The translations under genes were made by a program, and so were the position numbers. Positions 9,662-43,719 of a DNA stretch of 64,000 nt are shown here, in pieces. Under the pieces are notes generated by a model. The model ran no database searches and was not told the DNA's origin. It saw only the letters and a program-made list of their open reading frames with translations. The DNA lies in contig JAKLKW010000028.1 in assembly GCA_023150455.1 (NCBI GenBank), positions 1,671 to 65,670 of the forward strand, written 5' to 3'. Source of the DNA: Alphaproteobacteria bacterium (GTDB lineage: Bacteria; Pseudomonadota; Alphaproteobacteria; JAEULC01). Numbering within the stretch: position 1 is the stretch's first letter; the number at the start of each line of letters is the position of its first letter.

Positions 9662-11188
9662 ATGTTCGATCTGCTGGTTCAGGCGCTCGGCACGATCGTG
9701 CAGTGGAAGTACCTGCTGCCGCTGTTCCTCGGCACGCTGGCCGGCATCGTCGGCGGGGCCCTGCCGGGCGTGACCATCACGATGACGATCATCGTCGTGC
9801 TGCCGTTCACCTTCGGGCTGGACCCGCTGCAGGGCCTTGCGGCAATGACGGGGGTCTATGTCGGCGGGTCGGCGGGCGGGCTCGTCACCGCCTGCCTGCT
9901 GGGGATTCCCGGGACACCCTCGGCGATCGCCACGACCTTCGACGGATTTCCCATGGCGCGCAACGGCGCGCCCGGGCGCGCCGTCTGGCTGGGCGTGTGG
10001 TCCTCGTTCTTCGGCGGCCTGCTCGGCGGGCTGTTCCTGATCGTGGTCACCGGTCCGCTGGCGGCGATCGCGCTCGAGTTCGGGCCGTGGGAGTATTTCT
10101 CCCTGTTCGTCCTCGCGATGGCCATGGTGGCCGGCCTGGCGGAGGACTCGCTGATCAAGGGCTTGATCTCCACGGCGATCGGGCTGCTCATCACCGTGAT
10201 CGGCAGCGATCCGATCACTGCGGTGCCGCGCTTCACGTTCGGCTCCGAGCTCATCGCCGGCGGTTTTCCCTTCCTGCCCGTGCTGATCGGCATCTTCGCC
10301 TTTGCCCAGATCCTGACCGACGTGGAGAAGCTCGGCGCGCCGAAGCCGGCCGGCGCCGGCGGGATCGCCGGTGCGACGCTGTCGATCTCCCATCCGAAGG
10401 TGATCGGCGAGATCCTGTCGCGGCCGGTCCTGCTGCTGTGGTCGACGCTGGTCGGCATCCTGATCGGCGTCCTGCCGGCCATCGGCGGCAGCGCGGCCAA
10501 CATGCTGGCCTACGACCAGGCGCGCAAGTTCTCGCGCCGGCCCCGGGAGTTCGGCACCGGCATCCCGGAAGGAATCATCGCCTCGGAATCCTCGAACAAC
10601 GCCAATGTCGGCGGCTCGCTGGTGACGATCATGGCGTTCGGCATCCCGGGCGACGCGGTCACGGCGGTGATGCTCGGCGCCATGACGATCCACGGCATCC
10701 AGTCGGGCCCGCTGTTCGTCTCGCAGCACGCCGCGCTCGCCTACGGGATCTACGCCTCCTACATCCTGGCGCATCTGCTGATGGTGCTGATCCTGGCGGT
10801 CGGCGCGCTGTTCATGATCCGCATCGCCTCGCTGCGCCTGTCCATGCTGGCGCCGATCGTGCTGGTGCTGTGCGTGATCGGGGCCTACGCGCTCAACAAC
10901 ACGATGCAGAGCGTCTACGTGCTGCTGCTGTTCGGCGTCGTCGGCTATGCCCTGGTGAAGGCCGGCTTCCCGCTGGCGCCGCTGATCCTCGGGCTTATTC
11001 TCGGCGACCAGATCGAGCTCAACCTGGTCCGCGCGATCATGACCGACGCCGACCCGTGGATGTTCGTCACCCGCCCCATCTCGGGCGGGCTGCTCGCCTG
11101 CGCCGTCCTGTCCGTCGGTTTGGCCTTGTGGCAGCACCGCCGCCATCGCCGGACCATGACGGCGGCGGCAGCCGAGGTCGACTTCTGA
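9662..11188 (+). CDS. tctA: Tripartite tricarboxylate transporter large permease TctA
   Basis: 508-aa polytopic membrane protein. N-terminus LPLFLGTLAGIVGGALPGVTITMTI is characteristic of TctA. Confidence 0.9.
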   Translation: MFDLLVQALGTIVQWKYLLPLFLGTLAGIVGGALPGVTITMTIIVVLPFTFGLDPLQGLAAMTGVYVGGSAGGLVTACLLGIPGTPSAIATTFDGFPMARNGAPGRAVWLGVWSSFFGGLLGGLFLIVVTGPLAAIALEFGPWEYFSLFVLAMAMVAGLAEDSLIKGLISTAIGLLITVIGSDPITAVPRFTFGSELIAGGFPFLPVLIGIFAFAQILTDVEKLGAPKPAGAGGIAGATLSISHPKVIGEILSRPVLLLWSTLVGILIGVLPAIGGSAANMLAYDQARKFSRRPREFGTGIPEGIIASESSNNANVGGSLVTIMAFGIPGDAVTAVMLGAMTIHGIQSGPLFVSQHAALAYGIYASYILAHLLMVLILAVGALFMIRIASLRLSMLAPIVLVLCVIGAYALNNTMQSVYVLLLFGVVGYALVKAGFPLAPLILGLILGDQIELNLVRAIMTDADPWMFVTRPISGGLLACAVLSVGLALWQHRRHRRTMTAAAAEVDF

Positions 11189-13846: not shown

Positions 13847-15382
13847 ATGCGCCCAGCCGCCGCGCTTCGCCGCACCCGCAGTTCCGCGCCCGTCCGGCAG
13901 CCGGCACCGGTCGCGCCGGGGGGCTCTAGCGGCGGCCAGTACCGGCCGCTGACCGACGCGGATGTCCGGCGCATCGTCGACGCCGCCAAGACCGTGCTCG
14001 AGCGCACCGGCATCCAGGTGATGCCGAGCCGGTGCCGCGAGGTGTTCCGCGCGCTCGGCTGCCGCGTCGACGCGGCGCGCGACCGCGTGCATATCCCCGC
14101 CCGCCTGGTCGAGCGGGCGCTGGCCAGCGCGGCACCCGTCGTGACCCTGGCCGGCCGCCGGCCGGAGCACGATCTCGCGCTGGGCGGGACGAAGGTCTAT
14201 CTCGGCACCGGCGGGCAGGCCGTCAAAGTGCTCGATCTGGACGGGCGCGTGCGCGAATCCGTCCTGCGCGACAACTACGACATCGGCCGCCTGGTCGATA
14301 CGCTCGAGCACATCCATTTCTACATGCGGCCGGTGGTCTGCCGCGACCTGGCGACCGAGGACATCGACGTCAACCAGTTCTACGCCTGCCTCGCCGCCAC
14401 GCCGAAGCACGTCATGGCCAATGCCTACCTGGCCGACAGCGTGCCGCTGCTGAAGGAGATGGCGGCGATGATGGCGGGCGGGGCCGCGGCCCTGGCCGCG
14501 CGGCCGATCATCTCGTTCTCCTCGTGCTGGACCGTGAGCCCGCTGCGCTACGCGGCCGAGACGGTGGAGATCCTCGACCGGATCATCGCGCACGACCTGC
14601 CGGTGGTCACGTCGTCCGCGCCGCAGGCCGGCGCCACGTCGCCCGCGGCGCTGGCCGGCACGCTCGTGCAGATCACCGCCGAGCAGCTTTCGGGTGTCGT
14701 CTACATCTGCCTGCAGAAGCCGCACTATCCGCTGATCATGGGCTGCGTGCCGGCGCAGGCGGATCTCCGCACCGGCGCCTTCACCGGCGGCTCGGGCGAG
14801 TTCGCGCTGCTGAATGCCGCCTGCGCGCAGATCGCGCAGCATCTCCGGCTGCCACTCTACAACTCCAGCGGCATCTCGGACGCCAAGATTCCCGACGCGC
14901 AGGCCGGGGCGGAGAAGGGCATCACGACGCTGGCGGCGGCGCTGGCCGGTGCCAACTACGTGCATCACTCGGCCGGCATGCTGGAAAGCCTGCTGGCGGT
15001 GGCCTACGAGCAGTACGTCATCGACAACGACGTCAACGGCGTGGCGATGCGCATGCTGAAGGGCATAGATGTCAGCGACGAGAGCCTGTCGATCGACGTG
15101 ATCGACGAGGTCTGCCGCGGGGAAGGGCACTTCCTCGGCCATCCGCAGACTCTTGGGCTGATGAACAGCGAGTACCTGTACCCGCGCTTCATGGACCGCC
15201 AGACGCGCGACGACTGGGAAAGCAAGGGCGCCAAGGACATCCGCGAGGCGGCGCGCGACCATGCGCGCAAGGTGCTGGCCGAGCATTTCCCGCGGGTGAT
15301 CGAGCCGGCGCTCGACCGCGACTTGCGGCGGCGCTTCCGCATCCTGCTGCCCGAATCCGCGATGCGTCCGCACGCGGCGTAG
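13847..15382 (+). CDS. MttB-superfamily (trimethylamine methyltransferase-like, non-pyrrolysine) methyltransferase
   Basis: ORF 13703..15382 trimmed to ATG 13847. Length is ~511 aa, and segments such as PLTDADVRRIVDAAKTVLERTGI and GGSGEFALLNAACAQIAQHLRLPLY are typical of MttB homologs. No in-frame TAG. Confidence 0.8.
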   Translation: MRPAAALRRTRSSAPVRQPAPVAPGGSSGGQYRPLTDADVRRIVDAAKTVLERTGIQVMPSRCREVFRALGCRVDAARDRVHIPARLVERALASAAPVVTLAGRRPEHDLALGGTKVYLGTGGQAVKVLDLDGRVRESVLRDNYDIGRLVDTLEHIHFYMRPVVCRDLATEDIDVNQFYACLAATPKHVMANAYLADSVPLLKEMAAMMAGGAAALAARPIISFSSCWTVSPLRYAAETVEILDRIIAHDLPVVTSSAPQAGATSPAALAGTLVQITAEQLSGVVYICLQKPHYPLIMGCVPAQADLRTGAFTGGSGEFALLNAACAQIAQHLRLPLYNSSGISDAKIPDAQAGAEKGITTLAAALAGANYVHHSAGMLESLLAVAYEQYVIDNDVNGVAMRMLKGIDVSDESLSIDVIDEVCRGEGHFLGHPQTLGLMNSEYLYPRFMDRQTRDDWESKGAKDIREAARDHARKVLAEHFPRVIEPALDRDLRRRFRILLPESAMRPHAA

Positions 15383-26167: not shown

Positions 26168-26722
26168 GGCGGGCGAGCCCCTGTGGGTTCAAGGAGCCTG
26201 GACTTAAGCCGAACTCGCGGGCGACGCCAAGGGGGCGAAAGGCCGTTACTATAATGAACCGCGTCCGGATGAATGCTGCTTGGGTCATGCAGATCGGCAA
26301 TGGCGCTTGTCCGCTCAGACGGAAACCACTTACGAATTCGCATGGGATGCCGCCCAGGCGCTCGCGCTCCGCCGCATGATTGCGGTTTCCTTCAGTCGTT
26401 GCCCTTCGCATGGTGCGGGTGATGATTGCGGCCGTTGTCCTAACGCTTTGTGAGTTTCCTCGACTTGGCTGTCAGGAAGTCGAAATTGGCCTCCGGCTCG
26501 ACGGAAAGGGCCTGTTGGAGGATTTCCCGATGCTCGGCTTCAGCCAAACGTCCGTTTGGGCGGGGCGTCGCTGCGGCGACGGTGAGGGCAGCCAGCACGA
26601 GTCTCGCGTGCAAGGCCGGGCCGGCTGCCTGGTCATGATCGCCGAGTCGATCGGCGAGTGGCCGCTCACGTCGTCGGATCGCCGCTAGGCGGCTTTCCGA
26701 CCAGGCCCGAGGGAGGCGGCGC

Positions 26723-29018
26723 CTATGCCGCGCGCACCGTGTGGATGAACATGTCGACTTCCTCGCGCAGCTGGTCGGCGATGCGGGTCAGCGCGGCGGC
26801 CGCCTGCTCCATCTGCACGGCGGCGCTGCCGGTTTCCTCGACGGCGCCGGTCACGCCGGCGATGTTGCGGTCGAGTTCGTGGCTGCTGGCCGAGGCGTCC
26901 TGGACGTTGCGGCTGATCTCCTTGGTCGCGGCGCTCTGCTCCTCGACCGCCGAGGCCACGCCGGCGGCGATCGTGTTGATCTCCGCGATCGTGCCGGCGA
27001 TGGCGCGGATCTCCTTGACCGCACCGCCGGTGGTCGACTGGATGCCCTGGATCTGGCGCGAGATGTCCTCGGTCGCCTTGGCGGTCTGGTTGGCCAGCGA
27101 CTTGACCTCCGAGGCCACCACCGCGAAGCCCTTGCCGGCCTCGCCGGCGCGCGCGGCCTCGATGGTCGCGTTGAGCGCGAGCAGGTTGGTCTGGCCGGCG
27201 ACCGCGTTGATGAGGCCGACCACCTGGCCGATCTTCTCGGCCGCCTCGCTCAGGCTCTGCACGGTGGCGTTGGTGCGTCCGGCCTGATCGGCCGCCTCGC
27301 GCGCCATGCCGCTGGAGTGCGCGACCTGCCGGCTGATCTCCTGGATCGACGCCGCCAGCTCCTCGGTCGCCGTGGCGGCGCCCTGGACGTTGGCCGATGC
27401 CTGCTCGCAGGCGCCGGCGGCGGCCTTGGCCTGCGTGCTGGTACGCTCGGCGCTGCCGGTCAGCGCGCGCGCCGTGCCGTGCATCTCGGCGGCGGAGCGG
27501 GTCAGCGTATCGACCACCGCCTTCACGCTGCTCTCGAACGCGTCGGCCATCGCCTGCAGCTGCTCCTTGCGGCGACGCTCGGCCTGTTCGGCCAGGGCGC
27601 GACGCTCTTCCTCGGCCTTGCGGCGGCTGGTCTCCTCGGCCGCGCGCGCCTGCTCCTCGAGCCGGCGCTTCTCCTCCGCGGCCCGACGCTCTTCCTCGGC
27701 CTTCTCGCGCTGGCGCTCGTCCTCGCGCCGGCGCGCCTCCTCCGCCTCGGCCTGCAGGCGCTCGTTCTCCTGGCCGGAGTTCTTGAACACCTCGACCGCC
27801 CGGGCCATGCGACCGATCTCGTCGCGCCGCTCCGTCGACGGCACGGCGACCGACCAGTCCTTCTCGGCCAGCCCGCCCATGGCCTTCGTCAGCCCCGCCA
27901 GCGGGTGCACGACGCCGCGATAGACGATCGAATAGGTCACGAACAGCGCCACCAGCACGCTCGCGATCGACAGGTAGGCCTGGACCTGCTTGCTCGACTC
28001 GATCGTCTCCTCGAGGCGGCCGACCGTCACCATGCTCTGGGTCTCCGCCGTGCTGACATCGCTCGACAACTCGCTGTCGAGCTGCTCGGCGATCTTCGAG
28101 GCCGCCTGCAGCGCCTTGATCGCCATGTCGGCGGACGAAAGCTCCTTGCGGCGGAGCGCCGGCAGGCCCGTATCGGCACTGCCGAGGGCGAGGATCTGCT
28201 GCGTCGCCGCACCGAGCTCCTTCGCCGTCTTCGCGTCGACCTTCTCCAGCCCCGCGACCGCCTTGCGGATGCGCCCGGTCGTGGCGACGAACCGGTCCTG
28301 CAAAGGCACGAGCTGCTCCGGACGCTCGGCCTGGGCGATCTCGTTCAGCACCCCGGCCAGATAGTTGACCTCGGCGACGAGGGTCCACAGGCCCTGCACC
28401 ACCGAGAACTGCACGTCGCCCAGCGTCTTCAGCGACTTGGCGATCGCCTCGGGCGTCGCCTTCTGGTCGACGTCGGTCAGGCCCATCGTCATGTCGAACA
28501 CGGCGTTGTCGACCATGGGCGCGACCTTCTGGATGAAGCTCTCGCGCTCCTTGACGATGACCGCCGAGGCTTGGATGCGCGCCTCCGCCGCCTCCAGGCG
28601 GCTCGTCACCGCCTTGTCGAGCGTCGACAGTTCCTGCGACAGGTTGTCGACCGTCTGGCTGACGCCGGCGGCGCGGTCCTTCTCGATCAGTCCCGAGGCG
28701 GAAACCGTGTCCAGGTCGGCGCGCAGCTGGTCCTGCATCTGCTTCAGGCGCGCGAGCTCGCCCTGGCGCTCCTGCTGCGAGCGCACCGCCGCCAGCAGCG
28801 GCGCCGCCGCGCTCACCGTCGCGGCCTGGCGCGACATGGTCAGCACCGATACGACCGCGGGCATGGCCTGGCGGCTGATCCGCTCGACCGAGGTGTCGAC
28901 GGCCCGGTAGGAGAACCAGGCGACCGCCGCCGATCCGATCGTGAACGCCGCGACCACGGCCCGATCCGATCGTGAACGCCGCGACCACGGCGAACGACAG
29001 ATACAGCTTGTAGCGCAT
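26723..29018 (-). pseudogene. Methyl-accepting chemotaxis protein whose 5' end is frameshifted by a 31-bp tandem duplication
   Basis: C-terminal signalling domain: [36 protein letters not shown] domain and two TM segments are present. ATG 29018 ([19 protein letters not shown]) leaves the MCP frame after the first repeat copy. The MCP frame is open only back to a TTG at 29023. Confidence 0.7.
28930..28991. repeat. Perfect 31-bp tandem duplication (ccgatccgatcgtgaacgccgcgaccacggc x2)
   Basis: Read directly: 28930..28960 and 28961..28991 are identical. The unit length is not a multiple of 3. Confidence 0.97.
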
Positions 29019-29213
29019 GGCAATGTTCACGCCGGGCAGGCGCGGCATCCAGGAAGGACGCGGCAGCTTGGGCATCCGGGCCATGAGGGCGGTCTTCGAC
29101 GGGCGCATGGATTCAACCTCTTCGTTGCTGGCGGACCGTGGCCCCGGCCCCGGTGCCGGCCGGGGCCACGGTCGCGCTGTCTGCTCGGATATGCCGACCA
29201 GGCGCCGGCGGCC

Positions 29214-29441
29214 TCAACTGCCGGTCGCCGTCAGCTGCTTCACGGCCTTGAACGTGCCGTCCTTCTGCAGCACCGTGACGAACACTTCGTCCATGCCCTG
29301 GTTGTCGTCGGCGCCGAAGGTGATCTTGTCCGCCGCCACGCCGGGGTCGGCGGCCTGGGCGGCGAACGGCAGAGTGAAGCTGAAGGCGAGAGCGATGGCG
29401 CTCTTTCTGATTATCGGGGGCATCATACCTCTCCGGATCAC
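29214..29441 (-). CDS. Hypothetical small secreted protein
   Basis: 75 aa with the signal peptide ...SAIALAFSFTLPFAAQA. Alternative starts lie at Met6/Met7. Confidence 0.5.
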   Translation of the reverse strand: MIRRGMMPPIIRKSAIALAFSFTLPFAAQAADPGVAADKITFGADDNQGMDEVFVTVLQKDGTFKAVKQLTATGS

Positions 29442-33421: not shown

Positions 33422-34174
<753 letters not shown>

Positions 34175-35278: not shown

Positions 35279-35321
35279 CTCGCCCCCGCTCCGCCGTAGT
35301 ACCTTGGGGGCGCCAGGAGGA

Positions 35322-35506
35322 TCCCGCGGGAGAGACTGCCCGGAGCCCACAGGCTTCAGGGCGGCGCCGAAGGAGCAACGGCCCCGAAACTCTCAGGCAA
35401 AAGGACCGCGGGACTTATTGGGCGCTCTGGAAAGCGGGCCTCGCGGCCCCACCGACGGAGTAAGCCGGGCGATCCGGCGAATCTCTCAGGTCTAACGGAC
35501 AGAGTG
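35322..35506 (+). promoter_or_regulatory. Tandem glycine riboswitch (two aptamers) in the gcvT leader
   Basis: Aptamer 1: cgcGGGAGAG...GCGCCGAAGGAGCAA...CTCTCAGGCAAAAGGACcgcggg. Aptamer 2: CTCTGGAAAG...CCACCGACGGAGTAA...CTCTCAGGTCTAACGGACAGAG. Both match the Rfam glycine-riboswitch consensus cores. Confidence 0.9.
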
Positions 35507-35580: not shown

Positions 35581-36696
35581 GTGGCCGATCAACATCCCGA
35601 GCTCGTTCTCCAACGCACGCCGCTGAACGCGCTGCACCGCGCGCTGGGCGCGAAGATGGTGCCGTTCGCCGGCTACGACATGCCGGTGCAGTATCCCGAC
35701 GGCATCCTGCGCGAGCATCTGCACACGCGCGAGGCGGCCGGCCTGTTCGACGTGTCGCACATGGGCCAGCTGCGCATCCGCGGCGCCGACGCGGCGAAGC
35801 GGCTGGAAGCCCTGGTCCCCGGCGACCTGCAGGCCCTGGCGCCCGGGCGCATGCGCTACACGATGCTGACCAACGAGGATGCCGGCATCCTCGACGACCT
35901 GATGGTGACGCGCTTCGACGACCACCTCGTGGTCGTCGTCAACGCCTCGTGCAAGGAAGCCGACACGGCGCACATCGCGAAGCGTCTGGGCGCGGCGGTC
36001 GAGCCGCTGCAGGACCGGGCCCTGATCGCGCTGCAAGGGCCGAAGGCCGCCGCCGCGCTGGCGCCGCTCGCGCCCGACGCGGGCAGGATGGCGTTCATGT
36101 CGGGCGCCTACATGCGCGTCGCCGGCATCGACGCCTTCGTGACGCGCTCCGGCTACACCGGCGAGGACGGCTACGAGGTTTCCGTTCCGGCCGACGCGGT
36201 CGAGGCGCTCGCCCGCAAGCTGCTGGCGCAGCCCGGCGTGAAGCCGATCGGCCTGGGCGCGCGCGATTCGCTGCGGCTCGAGGCCGGCCTGTGCCTGTAC
36301 GGCCACGACATCGACCACACAACGACGCCGATCGAGGCGAATCTGGTCTGGACGATCTCCAGGCGCCGGCGGGCGGAAGGCGGTTTTCCCGGCGCCGCCA
36401 TCGTGCAGCGCCAGCTCAAGGACGGGCCGGCGCGGCTGCGCATCGGCATCCAGCCGGAAGGGCGCGCGCCCGCGCGCGAAGGCACCGCGCTGGCGGACGC
36501 AGGCGGCGCTCCCGTCGGCCGGATCACCTCGGGCGGGTTCGGCCCGAGCGTCAACGGCCCGGTCGCGATGGGCTATGTCGCGCGCGCCAGCGCCGCGACC
36601 GGCACGAAGCTGCAGGCGATGGTGCGGGGCAAGCCGCTGCCGGCGCGCGTCGCCGCGCTGCCGTTCGTGCCGCACCGCTATCACAAGAGCACGTGA
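35581..36696 (+). CDS. gcvT: Glycine cleavage system aminomethyltransferase T
   Basis: 371 aa with a GTG start. [27 protein letters not shown]...[10 protein letters not shown]. Confidence 0.95.
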
Positions 36697-36720
36697 AGTC
36701 GAGCCAACAGGGGAATTCGG

Positions 36721-37098
36721 ATGGCAGATCGCAAGTTCAGCAAGGACCACGAATGGATCGAGGTCGACGGCGCCGTCGGCACGATCGGCATCACCGACTA
36801 CGCGCAGGGCCAGCTGGGCGACGTGGTCTTCGTCGAGCTGCCGGAGCCCGGCAGGAAGCTGGCCAAGGGCGACGCCGCGGCCGTGGTCGAGTCGGTCAAG
36901 GCGGCGAGCGAAGTCTACACGCCGGTCAGCGGCGAGGTGACCGCCGGCAACCAGGCGATCGTCGACGACCCGGCCAAGGTCAACGCCGAGGCCGAAGGCG
37001 GCGCGTGGTTCTTCAAGGTGAAGCTCGCCGATCCCGGCGAGCTTGGCGGACTGATGGACCGCACCGCCTACGACGCGTTCCTGAAGACGCTGGCCTGA
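36721..37098 (+). CDS. gcvH: Glycine cleavage system H protein
   Basis: 125 aa. Lipoyl-lysine motif [11 protein letters not shown] and the N-terminal motif HEWIE. Confidence 0.95.
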
Positions 37099-42528: not shown

Positions 42529-43719
42529 ATGACCAGGCAGGACATCGCGGCCGCGCCACCGAACCGAGGATCGGGCTTCCGCTTGGTATTCGCCGTGGCC
42601 TTCGTGCTGGCGGCCGTTCTCTATGCCGAATATCGGACCTACGGGCTGCCGGCGCCGAGCGAAGCCTCGGAGCCGGGCGGTCCCCGCGCCGTCCCGGCGA
42701 CGTTCCAGGCGCGGCTGCCGCCCGAGCCCGGCGCGCGTCCGGCCGACGCGTCCGCCGCCGATCCTCCGGCGCCCGACGCGGAGTTCCGCGACGCGCCGGC
42801 CGTCATCGAGCCGGCCGTCATCGACCCGGAGAGGCCCGTGGCGGGCGACGCGTTCGTGCCGCCATCGCCGGTCGATCCGCCGCCCGCCGATCCGATCGGG
42901 GAACGGCAGCTTGCGGCGTTGACGCCCGGAATGCTGCCGTCGGGCCTGCCCGATGCGGCGATCCGGCCGGCGCCGCGGGCCGAGCCCGGGCCGGCCCTGT
43001 GGCGGGTCAACGCCGTGCCGTTCGAGCGCCGGCCGGCGCAGCCCCTGATCGCGGTGATCATCGACGATGCCGGGCTCGACCGCGCGCGCACGGCGCGCGC
43101 CACGCGCCTGCCCGCGCCGCTCACCATCTCGTTCCTGCCCTATGCCGGCGACGTCGCACGGCAGGCGGACGAGGCGCGCCGGCGGGGACATGAATTGATG
43201 CTGCACCTGCCGATGGAGCCGCTCGGGCCGCACGAGAATCCCGGCCCCGATGCGCTGACCACGCGGCAATCGGGGCCCGAGCTGCTGCGCCGCCTGGACC
43301 TGCACCTTGGGCGTTTCGACGGCTATGTCGGCGTGAACAACCACATGGGCAGCCGTTTCACGCAGGAGCGCGAGGCGATGCTGCCGGTGCTCGAGGCCGT
43401 GCGCGCGCGCGGCCTGCTGTTCGTCGATTCGCGCACGGTCGGCGCGACCGTCGCCGGCGCGCTGGCCGACCGGCTCGGCCTTCCCGGCACGGCGCGCGAC
43501 GTGTTCATCGACCACGACGGCAGCGCCGCCGCCGTGCGCGCCCGCCTGGACGACATCGAGCGCATCGCGCGGCGCACCGGCAAGGCGGTTGCGATCGGCC
43601 ATCCGCACGACGTGACGCTCGACGCGCTGGAGCGCTGGCTGCCGGGCCTCGCCGAGCGCGGCTTCGCCCTGGCGCCGGTTTCCGCCGTCGTTCTGCGCCG
43701 GCTCGAGGCGGCGCGATGA
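42529..43719 (+). CDS. Divergent polysaccharide deacetylase family protein (YibQ-like) with a Pro/Ala-rich linker
   Basis: TM segment, P/A-rich region, then LIAVIIDDAGLD...ISFLPY...HELMLHLPMEP...NNHMGS...FVDSRT, typical of the YibQ/DUF610 family. Confidence 0.8.
   Translation: MTRQDIAAAPPNRGSGFRLVFAVAFVLAAVLYAEYRTYGLPAPSEASEPGGPRAVPATFQARLPPEPGARPADASAADPPAPDAEFRDAPAVIEPAVIDPERPVAGDAFVPPSPVDPPPADPIGERQLAALTPGMLPSGLPDAAIRPAPRAEPGPALWRVNAVPFERRPAQPLIAVIIDDAGLDRARTARATRLPAPLTISFLPYAGDVARQADEARRRGHELMLHLPMEPLGPHENPGPDALTTRQSGPELLRRLDLHLGRFDGYVGVNNHMGSRFTQEREAMLPVLEAVRARGLLFVDSRTVGATVAGALADRLGLPGTARDVFIDHDGSAAAVRARLDDIERIARRTGKAVAIGHPHDVTLDALERWLPGLAERGFALAPVSAVVLRRLEAAR

Follow-up and report, generated by a model that had tools for sequence, protein, structure and literature searches.

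An exact 31-bp tandem duplication, private to one draft assembly, frameshifts a chemoreceptor gene of an uncultured alphaproteobacterium and may mark a faulty contig join

The sequence analysed here (the window) is a 64-kb stretch of contig JAKLKW010000028.1, from a draft assembly of an uncultured environmental alphaproteobacterium, and carries on its minus strand a gene for a methyl-accepting chemotaxis protein (MCP) that is interrupted by an exact tandem duplication. The MCP gene, its small upstream neighbour and the duplicated segment are placed as follows:

26723..29108, minus strand: MCP gene interrupted by the duplication, 784 aa with one copy of the segment (Pfam, hydropathy, dN/dS and the gene call of a sister assembly)
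29214..29423, minus strand: gene of 69 aa, function unassigned, 106 nt upstream of the MCP gene on the same strand
28961..28991, minus strand: copy 1 of the 31-mer, lying 5' when read along the gene, with the sequence GCCGTGGTCGCGGCGTTCACGATCGGATCGG
28930..28960, minus strand: copy 2 of the 31-mer, in the receptor frame of the downstream gene and encoding residues 40-49 again
28930-28991, plus-strand reading: the 31-mer as CCGATCCGATCGTGAACGCCGCGACCACGGC
Copy-copy junction in the window: GATCGGATCGG followed directly by GCCGTGGTCGC

The host gene encodes a methyl-accepting chemotaxis protein, with the signalling domain MCPsignal (PF00015) matched above threshold (E = 1.4e-30, 106.9 bits against a gathering cut-off of 34.6) at residues 558-719 of the repaired 754-aa form, and with two transmembrane helices around a periplasmic sensor, followed by a HAMP domain (PF00672) that scores 23.5 bits, slightly below its cut-off of 25. 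The HAMP and MCPsignal domains bear out the identity given to the gene in the initial annotation of this DNA. Hydropathy peaks place TM1 at ~34-56 and TM2 at ~365-390 of the 784-aa form, and the predicted order is a 30-aa basic N-terminal extension, TM1, a helical periplasmic sensor of ~300 aa, TM2, HAMP, a charged helix of ~90 aa rich in Glu, Arg and Ala, and the MCP signalling domain. Transmembrane MCPs with a helical periplasmic sensor share this layout of TM1, periplasmic helical domain, TM2, HAMP and signalling domain (PF00672, PF00015), however the window receptor adds to it the basic N-terminal extension and the charged helix, and its sensor domain is almost without relatives, the best match outside the genus being 36% identical. 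In Pfam the sensor region gives a single match, sub-threshold, to the TorS sensor domain, with a protein search of the repaired sensor region returning eight weak matches (best 36% identity) that are uninformative on the N-terminus.

The duplication is confirmed in the window sequence. Tandem Repeats Finder describes positions 28930-28991 as an exact tandem of period 31 with 2.0 copies, 100% matches and no indels, and direct string comparison shows 28930-28960 to equal 28961-28991 letter for letter, in agreement with the exact 31-bp tandem first reported there. The 31-mer is absent from the rest of the 64-kb window, even at three mismatches, and 100 dinucleotide-preserving shuffles yielded 0 matches as the chance expectation. 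Elsewhere in the 64 kb, perfect tandem duplications are built on units of 8-15 bp, the 31-bp repeat being the only one with a unit above 15 bp, and the window holds no other 100% identical array. The repeat cannot be extended by even 1 base on either side, which leaves 0-bp microhomology at the duplication junction, and no flanking direct repeat that could predispose to duplication is present at the locus. Slippage between 6-bp GGTCGC repeats lying 31 bp apart was rejected as a source of the repeat, the junction expected from it being CGGCG/GGTCGC and that observed TCGG/GCCGT. At the lesion, searches for RNA families and for promoter or terminator motifs returned nothing relevant. As 31 = 3 x 10 + 1, the duplication introduces a +1 frameshift into the MCP gene, with copy 1 coding for native residues 40-49 plus one surplus base. 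The frame is lost after the first copy whether it is read from ATG 29018 or from ATG 29108, and a continuous MCP frame returns on removal of one copy, so that both the frameshift of the 5' end and its repair by removing one copy stand as originally described.

A scan of a genome collection found one ortholog, in an uncultured Rhodospirillaceae metagenome-assembled genome (MAG; L001), which is syntenic with the window at 87-91% nucleotide and 89% amino acid identity, and which carries one copy of the segment in an intact 787-aa gene. Against this ortholog dN/dS is 0.20, and all other indels are in frame. Sequences of the same organism were found by look-ups of neighbouring genes, and comprise the NCBI sister assembly GCA_026647135.1 (L002, L011, L025 and L039) and Logan per-run assemblies of SRR17665565-90 and SRR22272410-12 (L003-L038). 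One copy is present in all nine contigs crossing the site, which represent eight independent assemblies and have flanks identical to the window; the nine are two fetches of GCA_026647135.1 and Logan contigs of six listed runs from two run series, one of the Logan contigs being recorded in three samples. The Logan contigs, built at k=31, show only the major allele of the run assemblies crossing the site, and this is the one-copy allele. JGI metagenome contigs scanned with degenerate DNA anchors gave 0 matches. Judged from these comparisons, the duplication is private to this assembly, both the ortholog and the conspecifics being single-copy. The check for orthologs with the same 62 bp in frame, put forward in the initial annotation, has hence been run, and with one copy in the ortholog and in every conspecific contig it leaves the reading as a lesion in place. 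The lesion also appears as recent as had been proposed, the intact one-copy allele of the sister assembly showing 100% identity to the window over the other ~2.2 kb of the gene and over 5.9 kb altogether on that side.

What the two-copy sequence would produce depends on where translation begins, and four features bear on this:

29117..29123, minus strand: Shine-Dalgarno sequence GAAGAGG, 8 nt upstream of ATG 29108 and conserved in ortholog L001
29021..29023, minus strand: TTG put forward as a rescue start, without a Shine-Dalgarno sequence and within the translated N-terminal extension
28955..28957, minus strand: GTG inside copy 2, the start of the deposited 744-aa protein, without a Shine-Dalgarno sequence
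26685..29108, minus strand: frame that the two-copy sequence actually gives from the native start, with 49 native and 758 out-of-frame residues

The native start is probably ATG 29108, and not ATG 29018, which had been taken as the natural one. ATG 29108 is the only candidate start with a credible Shine-Dalgarno sequence, and the 90 nt between the two ATG codons are kept in the ortholog, where they differ by three synonymous changes and a 9-bp indel that preserves the frame, with the dN/dS of these 30 codons (0.24) near the whole-gene value of 0.20. In the ortholog the first 39 residues are conserved and under purifying selection, and the intact allele of the sister assembly is called from the same ATG as a protein of 784 aa. 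Together the Shine-Dalgarno sequence, conservation in the ortholog, dN/dS and the sister assembly's gene call favour ATG 29108, and a start there would put the duplication at codons 40-60 of the 784-aa protein, inside TM1, and not at codons ~10-30 as first counted. The receptor frame of 766 aa reported at the outset is correct in that the rest of the frame is intact, however the length of 766 aa belongs only to the open frame that begins at TTG 29023.

Taken literally, the two-copy allele is best read as a null allele. Ribosomes starting at 29108 would run from the native residues into out-of-frame sequence composed of 23% Arg, 21% Gly, 13% Ala and 9% Pro, and meet no stop for 807 codons, the shifted frame terminating 38 nt beyond the native stop, at 26685; the lack of an early stop stems from the high GC content of the gene. 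That the allele instead yields a working receptor from GTG 28957 or TTG 29023, its N-terminus merely remodelled, has in our estimation almost no probability. Both codons do share the frame of the receptor, the product from TTG would retain 18 hydrophobic residues after an Arg-rich stretch, and NCBI/nr lists the 744-aa product as a protein. However, the in-frame restart codons TTG 29023, GTG 28957 and ATG 28864 are all without a ribosome-binding site, whilst ATG 29108 is preceded by one that is strong and conserved, and reinitiation at internal starts would not be expected, as translation from upstream never ends near them and would occlude them throughout the 807 codons. Furthermore, the GTG product would have lost the basic N-terminus together with roughly a third of TM1, its 17-residue hydropathy maximum being 1.44 against 1.76 for the TTG product (the intact protein has a 19-residue maximum of 1.95), and the purifying selection on the N-terminal 39 residues in the ortholog also weighs against such a product. 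The proposal of TTG 29023 as a rescue start is not supported, this codon having no ribosome-binding site and lying inside the stretch translated from 29108, and an exact protein look-up found no record of the 766-aa TTG form. Programmed ribosomal frameshifting was also dismissed, all relatives lacking the second copy and encoding the receptor in a single frame.

Comparison with the other assemblies, which cover 56.3 kb of the window, revealed a second private lesion and a small number of further differences:

Between 29507 and 29508: 34-bp deletion private to the window, 517 bp from the duplication, missing bases GGCGCGGGCTGAGCAGCCGCGATTCACTGTCAGC
Deletion junction in the window: AATCAGCGGCCT followed directly by TACCGCGCGCG
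33925-33993: 69-bp in-frame segment missing from the sister MAG only, three Logan assemblies agreeing with the window
29848: SNP private to the sister MAG
12536: SNP seen in Logan contig L030 only
10250-11032: five SNPs against the sister MAG, which besides the window is the only assembly to cover them
55301: 1-bp difference in a C run, covered besides the window by L039 alone

The 34 bp are present in all seven other contigs that cover the site, and have no second copy in the window or at any locus that would mark them as a repeat or mobile element. The deletion junction, like that of the duplication, shows 0-bp microhomology. The site is a break point in two of seven independent k=31 assemblies, with contig L014 beginning exactly at the first missing base and L015 beginning 15 nt further in. 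The 69-aa gene sits on the 547-bp piece between the two private lesions. None of the SNPs (seven in total) is demonstrably private to the window over the 56.3 kb compared, and no small indel over this length is attributable to it, leaving as its only private differences two indels of at least 30 bp, 517 bp apart. In length these two almost offset one another (+31 and -34 bp).

We consider it somewhat probable (roughly 0.55) that the extra 31-bp copy is a local error of the draft assembly and would not be found in the genome of the organism. Three assembled pieces, one lying above 29508, one of 547 bp from 29507 to 28961, and one running from 28960 down, would have been abutted without proper handling of their ends. 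The 547-bp and downstream pieces would truly have overlapped by 31 bp, an overlap that when left untrimmed would give an exact tandem duplication, and the upstream and 547-bp pieces would truly have been separated by 34 unassembled bases, their abutment giving the deletion of 34 bp. On this view the organism itself would carry an intact chemoreceptor gene, encoding 784 aa from ATG 29108. Abutting three contigs in this manner, with the 31-bp overlap ignored and the 34-bp gap unfilled, reproduces the window exactly. Such a faulty join is consistent with the occurrence of the duplication in one assembly only, the conspecifics and the ortholog being single-copy, and with a mutation spectrum of two indels of at least 30 bp and no private SNP, which is unnatural for mutation and natural for a badly joined short contig. 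The absence of microhomology from both junctions likewise suits abutment, and is not what slippage usually leaves behind. The 34-bp site, at which two of seven assemblies break, seems intrinsically hard to assemble, the private 69-bp difference of the sister MAG indicates that medium-sized indels private to one assembly occur in this material, and the gene is otherwise pristine, being 100% identical to the intact allele with a dN/dS of 0.20. Additionally, 31 is a much-used assembler k and a typical length of k-mer overlap in de Bruijn assembly, although to our knowledge the default k-lists for metagenomes (21/33/55 in metaSPAdes; 21/29/39 and upwards in MEGAHIT) do not include it. A faulty join also has to contend with the absence of any break in the Logan assemblies at the duplication site, and hence of an independent sign of a hard spot there, with the inability of a pure de Bruijn assembler to create the k-mers of the copy-copy junction, which would require a step of joining, scaffolding, gap-closing or polishing, and with the lack of Ns at the joins. 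Small tandem duplications are, moreover, a common class of genuine spontaneous mutation. Among the known classes of error in MAGs are sequence duplicated at scaffold joins despite an overlap, end overlaps of k or k-1, and wrong repeat numbers, with 13 local errors described in a 1.13-Mb genome, and such errors pass incorrect protein sequences on to databases (Chen et al. 2020, PMC7111523). The lesions described here resemble those join errors in pairing an exact duplicate of what may be a k-mer-sized overlap with a nearby missing stretch, in being private and contradicted by assemblies of the same population, and in having led to the deposition of a corrupted gene, however the error class of PMC7111523 has Ns between the duplicated ends where none are seen here, and our classification is by inference. 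A generic literature search for duplication artefacts of k-mer overlaps returned only irrelevant eukaryotic papers, and one on accessions of this material (JAPKHE, SRR17665565 and SRR22272410 among them) returned none.

The main competitor to a faulty join, which we hold to be possible but on balance doubtful, is a genuine and very recent loss-of-function duplication of 31 bp that would have become the majority allele of the sampled population and inactivated the receptor. Replication slippage or template switching would have given rise to it, possibly with assistance from two small palindromes at the ends of the unit, GCCGnnnnnnCGGC and CGATCgGATCG. The 34-bp deletion would then be real as well and have arisen second on this haplotype, either as a compensatory change or as a further hit to the operon, unless both lesions stem from a single complex repair event. 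Internally the sequence shows nothing amiss, the duplication being exact and Ns and other anomalies being absent, and zero substitutions in the remaining 2.2 kb against the intact allele would suit a young lesion. Chemoreceptor genes are dispensable and often lost. Furthermore, the break of the SRR22272411 contig at the edge of the 34-bp segment could reflect a real structural polymorphism, and from the k=31 Logan graphs a two-copy allele in the minority would be expected to drop out as a loop of low coverage, so that its absence from these contigs leaves room for it at low frequency. The features of a recent pseudogene are indeed found, namely the dN/dS of 0.20, the in-frame indels against L001 and 0 differences outside the duplication, and are equally compatible with an artefact. 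Against a real mutation stands the requirement that two independent neutral indels, each of at least 30 bp, fell only 517 bp apart while 56 kb of sequence acquired no private SNP, which is very improbable in an otherwise identical strain unless selection or one complex event was involved. The two junctions without microhomology, and the one-copy allele as the sole allele in eight independent assemblies, also weigh against a mutational origin.

The remaining explanation offered at the outset is an ON/OFF switch, in which the duplication would be the OFF state of a phase-variable gene, reverting by slippage or unequal exchange between the copies. Exact tandem duplications can excise precisely, which is a documented mechanism of phase variation, and both one- and two-copy states exist among the assemblies of this organism, however we regard a switch as very unlikely. 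There is no positive evidence of an evolved switch, with the ortholog and all conspecifics single-copy, no variable-copy repeat tract, no predisposing flanking direct repeat, and the OFF state seen in one assembly only; moreover, any exact duplication is in principle reversible, and reversibility alone does not make a regulatory device. Of the three explanations first offered, the artefact and the fresh mutation remain, whereas the switch is left without positive evidence. Phase variation by tandem duplication is described for the pneumococcal genes cap3A, cap8E and tts (Waite et al. 2001, 2003, as reported in PMC11163986 and PMC4022640) and for Ralstonia solanacearum phcA (Poussier et al. 2003, as reported in bioRxiv 10.1101/2023.04.27.538605). 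As far as these secondary accounts describe them, such loci share with the window a perfect duplication within the ORF (here 31 bp x 2, 100% identical and +1), a frameshifted OFF allele and the possibility of precise reversion. They differ, on the same accounts, in that switching and reversion were observed in culture and recurred with different duplications, in contrast to the one static sequence presented here, and the gene here is a chemoreceptor of an uncultured environmental alphaproteobacterium. The contingency loci of Haemophilus and Neisseria, built on simple sequence repeats, likewise frameshift a surface or sensory gene near its 5' end through copy number, however their tracts consist of many units of 1-7 nt and are conserved across strains, whereas the unit here is 31 nt, occurs once in L001 and in the nine conspecific contigs, and forms no conserved tract of variable copy number. 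A real two-copy allele that segregates with the one-copy allele in natural populations of this Rhodospirillaceae-like organism, as a reversible OFF state of this chemoreceptor with its orphan sensor, is more improbable still; if true, it would extend phase variation by tandem duplication from the capsule and regulator genes of pathogens to switching of the chemosensory repertoire of environmental bacteria.

The feature is most likely an ordinary one, being so under a faulty join and a recent mutation alike, with several indirect lines favouring the assembly artefact, and neither outcome would upset current understanding. Were the duplication real, it would represent a textbook young pseudogene, and were it real and found in a mixed population, a rare case of duplication-based phase variation outside pathogens. 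Its main value lies in data quality, as a truncated "protein" has already entered a public database. The true receptor of the organism is almost certainly the 784-aa protein from ATG 29108, as encoded in the sister assembly, and the 744-aa entry is a workaround of the gene-caller and a by-product of the lesion. This entry, from GTG 28957 on a 67,275-bp contig, stands in NCBI/nr as the representative of its cluster.

The 31-bp tandem duplication in the chemoreceptor gene is joined by a second lesion private to the window assembly, a 34-bp deletion whose junction lies 517 bp from the duplication:

29507/29508: site of the 34-bp deletion, intergenic, with a 69-aa gene on one side and a divergent copper P-type ATPase gene on the other.

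The 34-bp segment absent from the window is found in every other contig of the same organism that covers the site (7/7), with no microhomology (0 bp) observed at the deletion junction, and an independent assembly contig (L014) starts at the exact first base of the missing segment. The summed effect of the duplication and the deletion on length is -3 bp. The private 31-bp duplication can be set against a 15-bp one on the + strand (GCCGGCCGTCATCGA x2.3, window 42795-42824), a perfect tandem duplication in frame, which every other assembly covering the site also carries and which is therefore genuine.

The window also differs from the sister MAG (GCA_026647135.1) at several other sites. Within a Gly/Asn-rich repeat protein gene (+ strand), the sister MAG lacks an in-frame segment of 69 bp (window 33925-33993) that the window shares with three per-run (Logan) assemblies. 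Imperfect direct repeats of ~24 bp flank the segment, and its absence is either a deletion private to the sister MAG or a collapsed repeat in that MAG. The sole 1-bp indel across the 56 kb compared is an intergenic C-run at window 55301, with CCCC in the window versus CCCCC in the sister MAG. Five SNPs are grouped within ~800 bp of a TctA-family gene (window 10250-11032), inside a 20-kb stretch that is otherwise identical to the sister MAG. A small patch of recombination could account for this cluster, as could a mixture of strains in one assembly.

Two further long frames lie open over the receptor gene:

26685-29108, - strand: +1 frame of the receptor gene, open for 807 codons.
26741-28975, + strand: antisense frame over the receptor gene, open for 744 codons.

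Both are spurious ORFs of the kind typical in very GC-rich genes (GC3 = 0.94), and could lead gene-calling software astray where the true frame has been disrupted. Between its HAMP and signalling domains, the receptor carries an unusual, charged E/R/A-rich stretch of ~90 aa (residues ~440-530; window ~27600-27800, - strand), also conserved in the ortholog, which resembles a spacer formed by a single alpha-helix or a coiled coil. The underlying DNA contains degenerate 18- and 21-bp repeats (TRF 27632-27746).

Among RNA-family matches, window 35317-35418 (+ strand) holds the aptamer of a glycine riboswitch (Rfam RF00504, 68.7 bits), upstream of gcvT and gcvH (35581-37098), genes of glycine cleavage. 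An Rfam match to PYLIS_3, the pyrrolysine insertion sequence of mttB (window 14873-14972, + strand), scores right at the cut-off (38.2 against a gathering score of 38) and is internal to an MttB-family methyltransferase gene. The match probably stems from a non-Pyl MttB homolog being similar in sequence, and not from a functional element.
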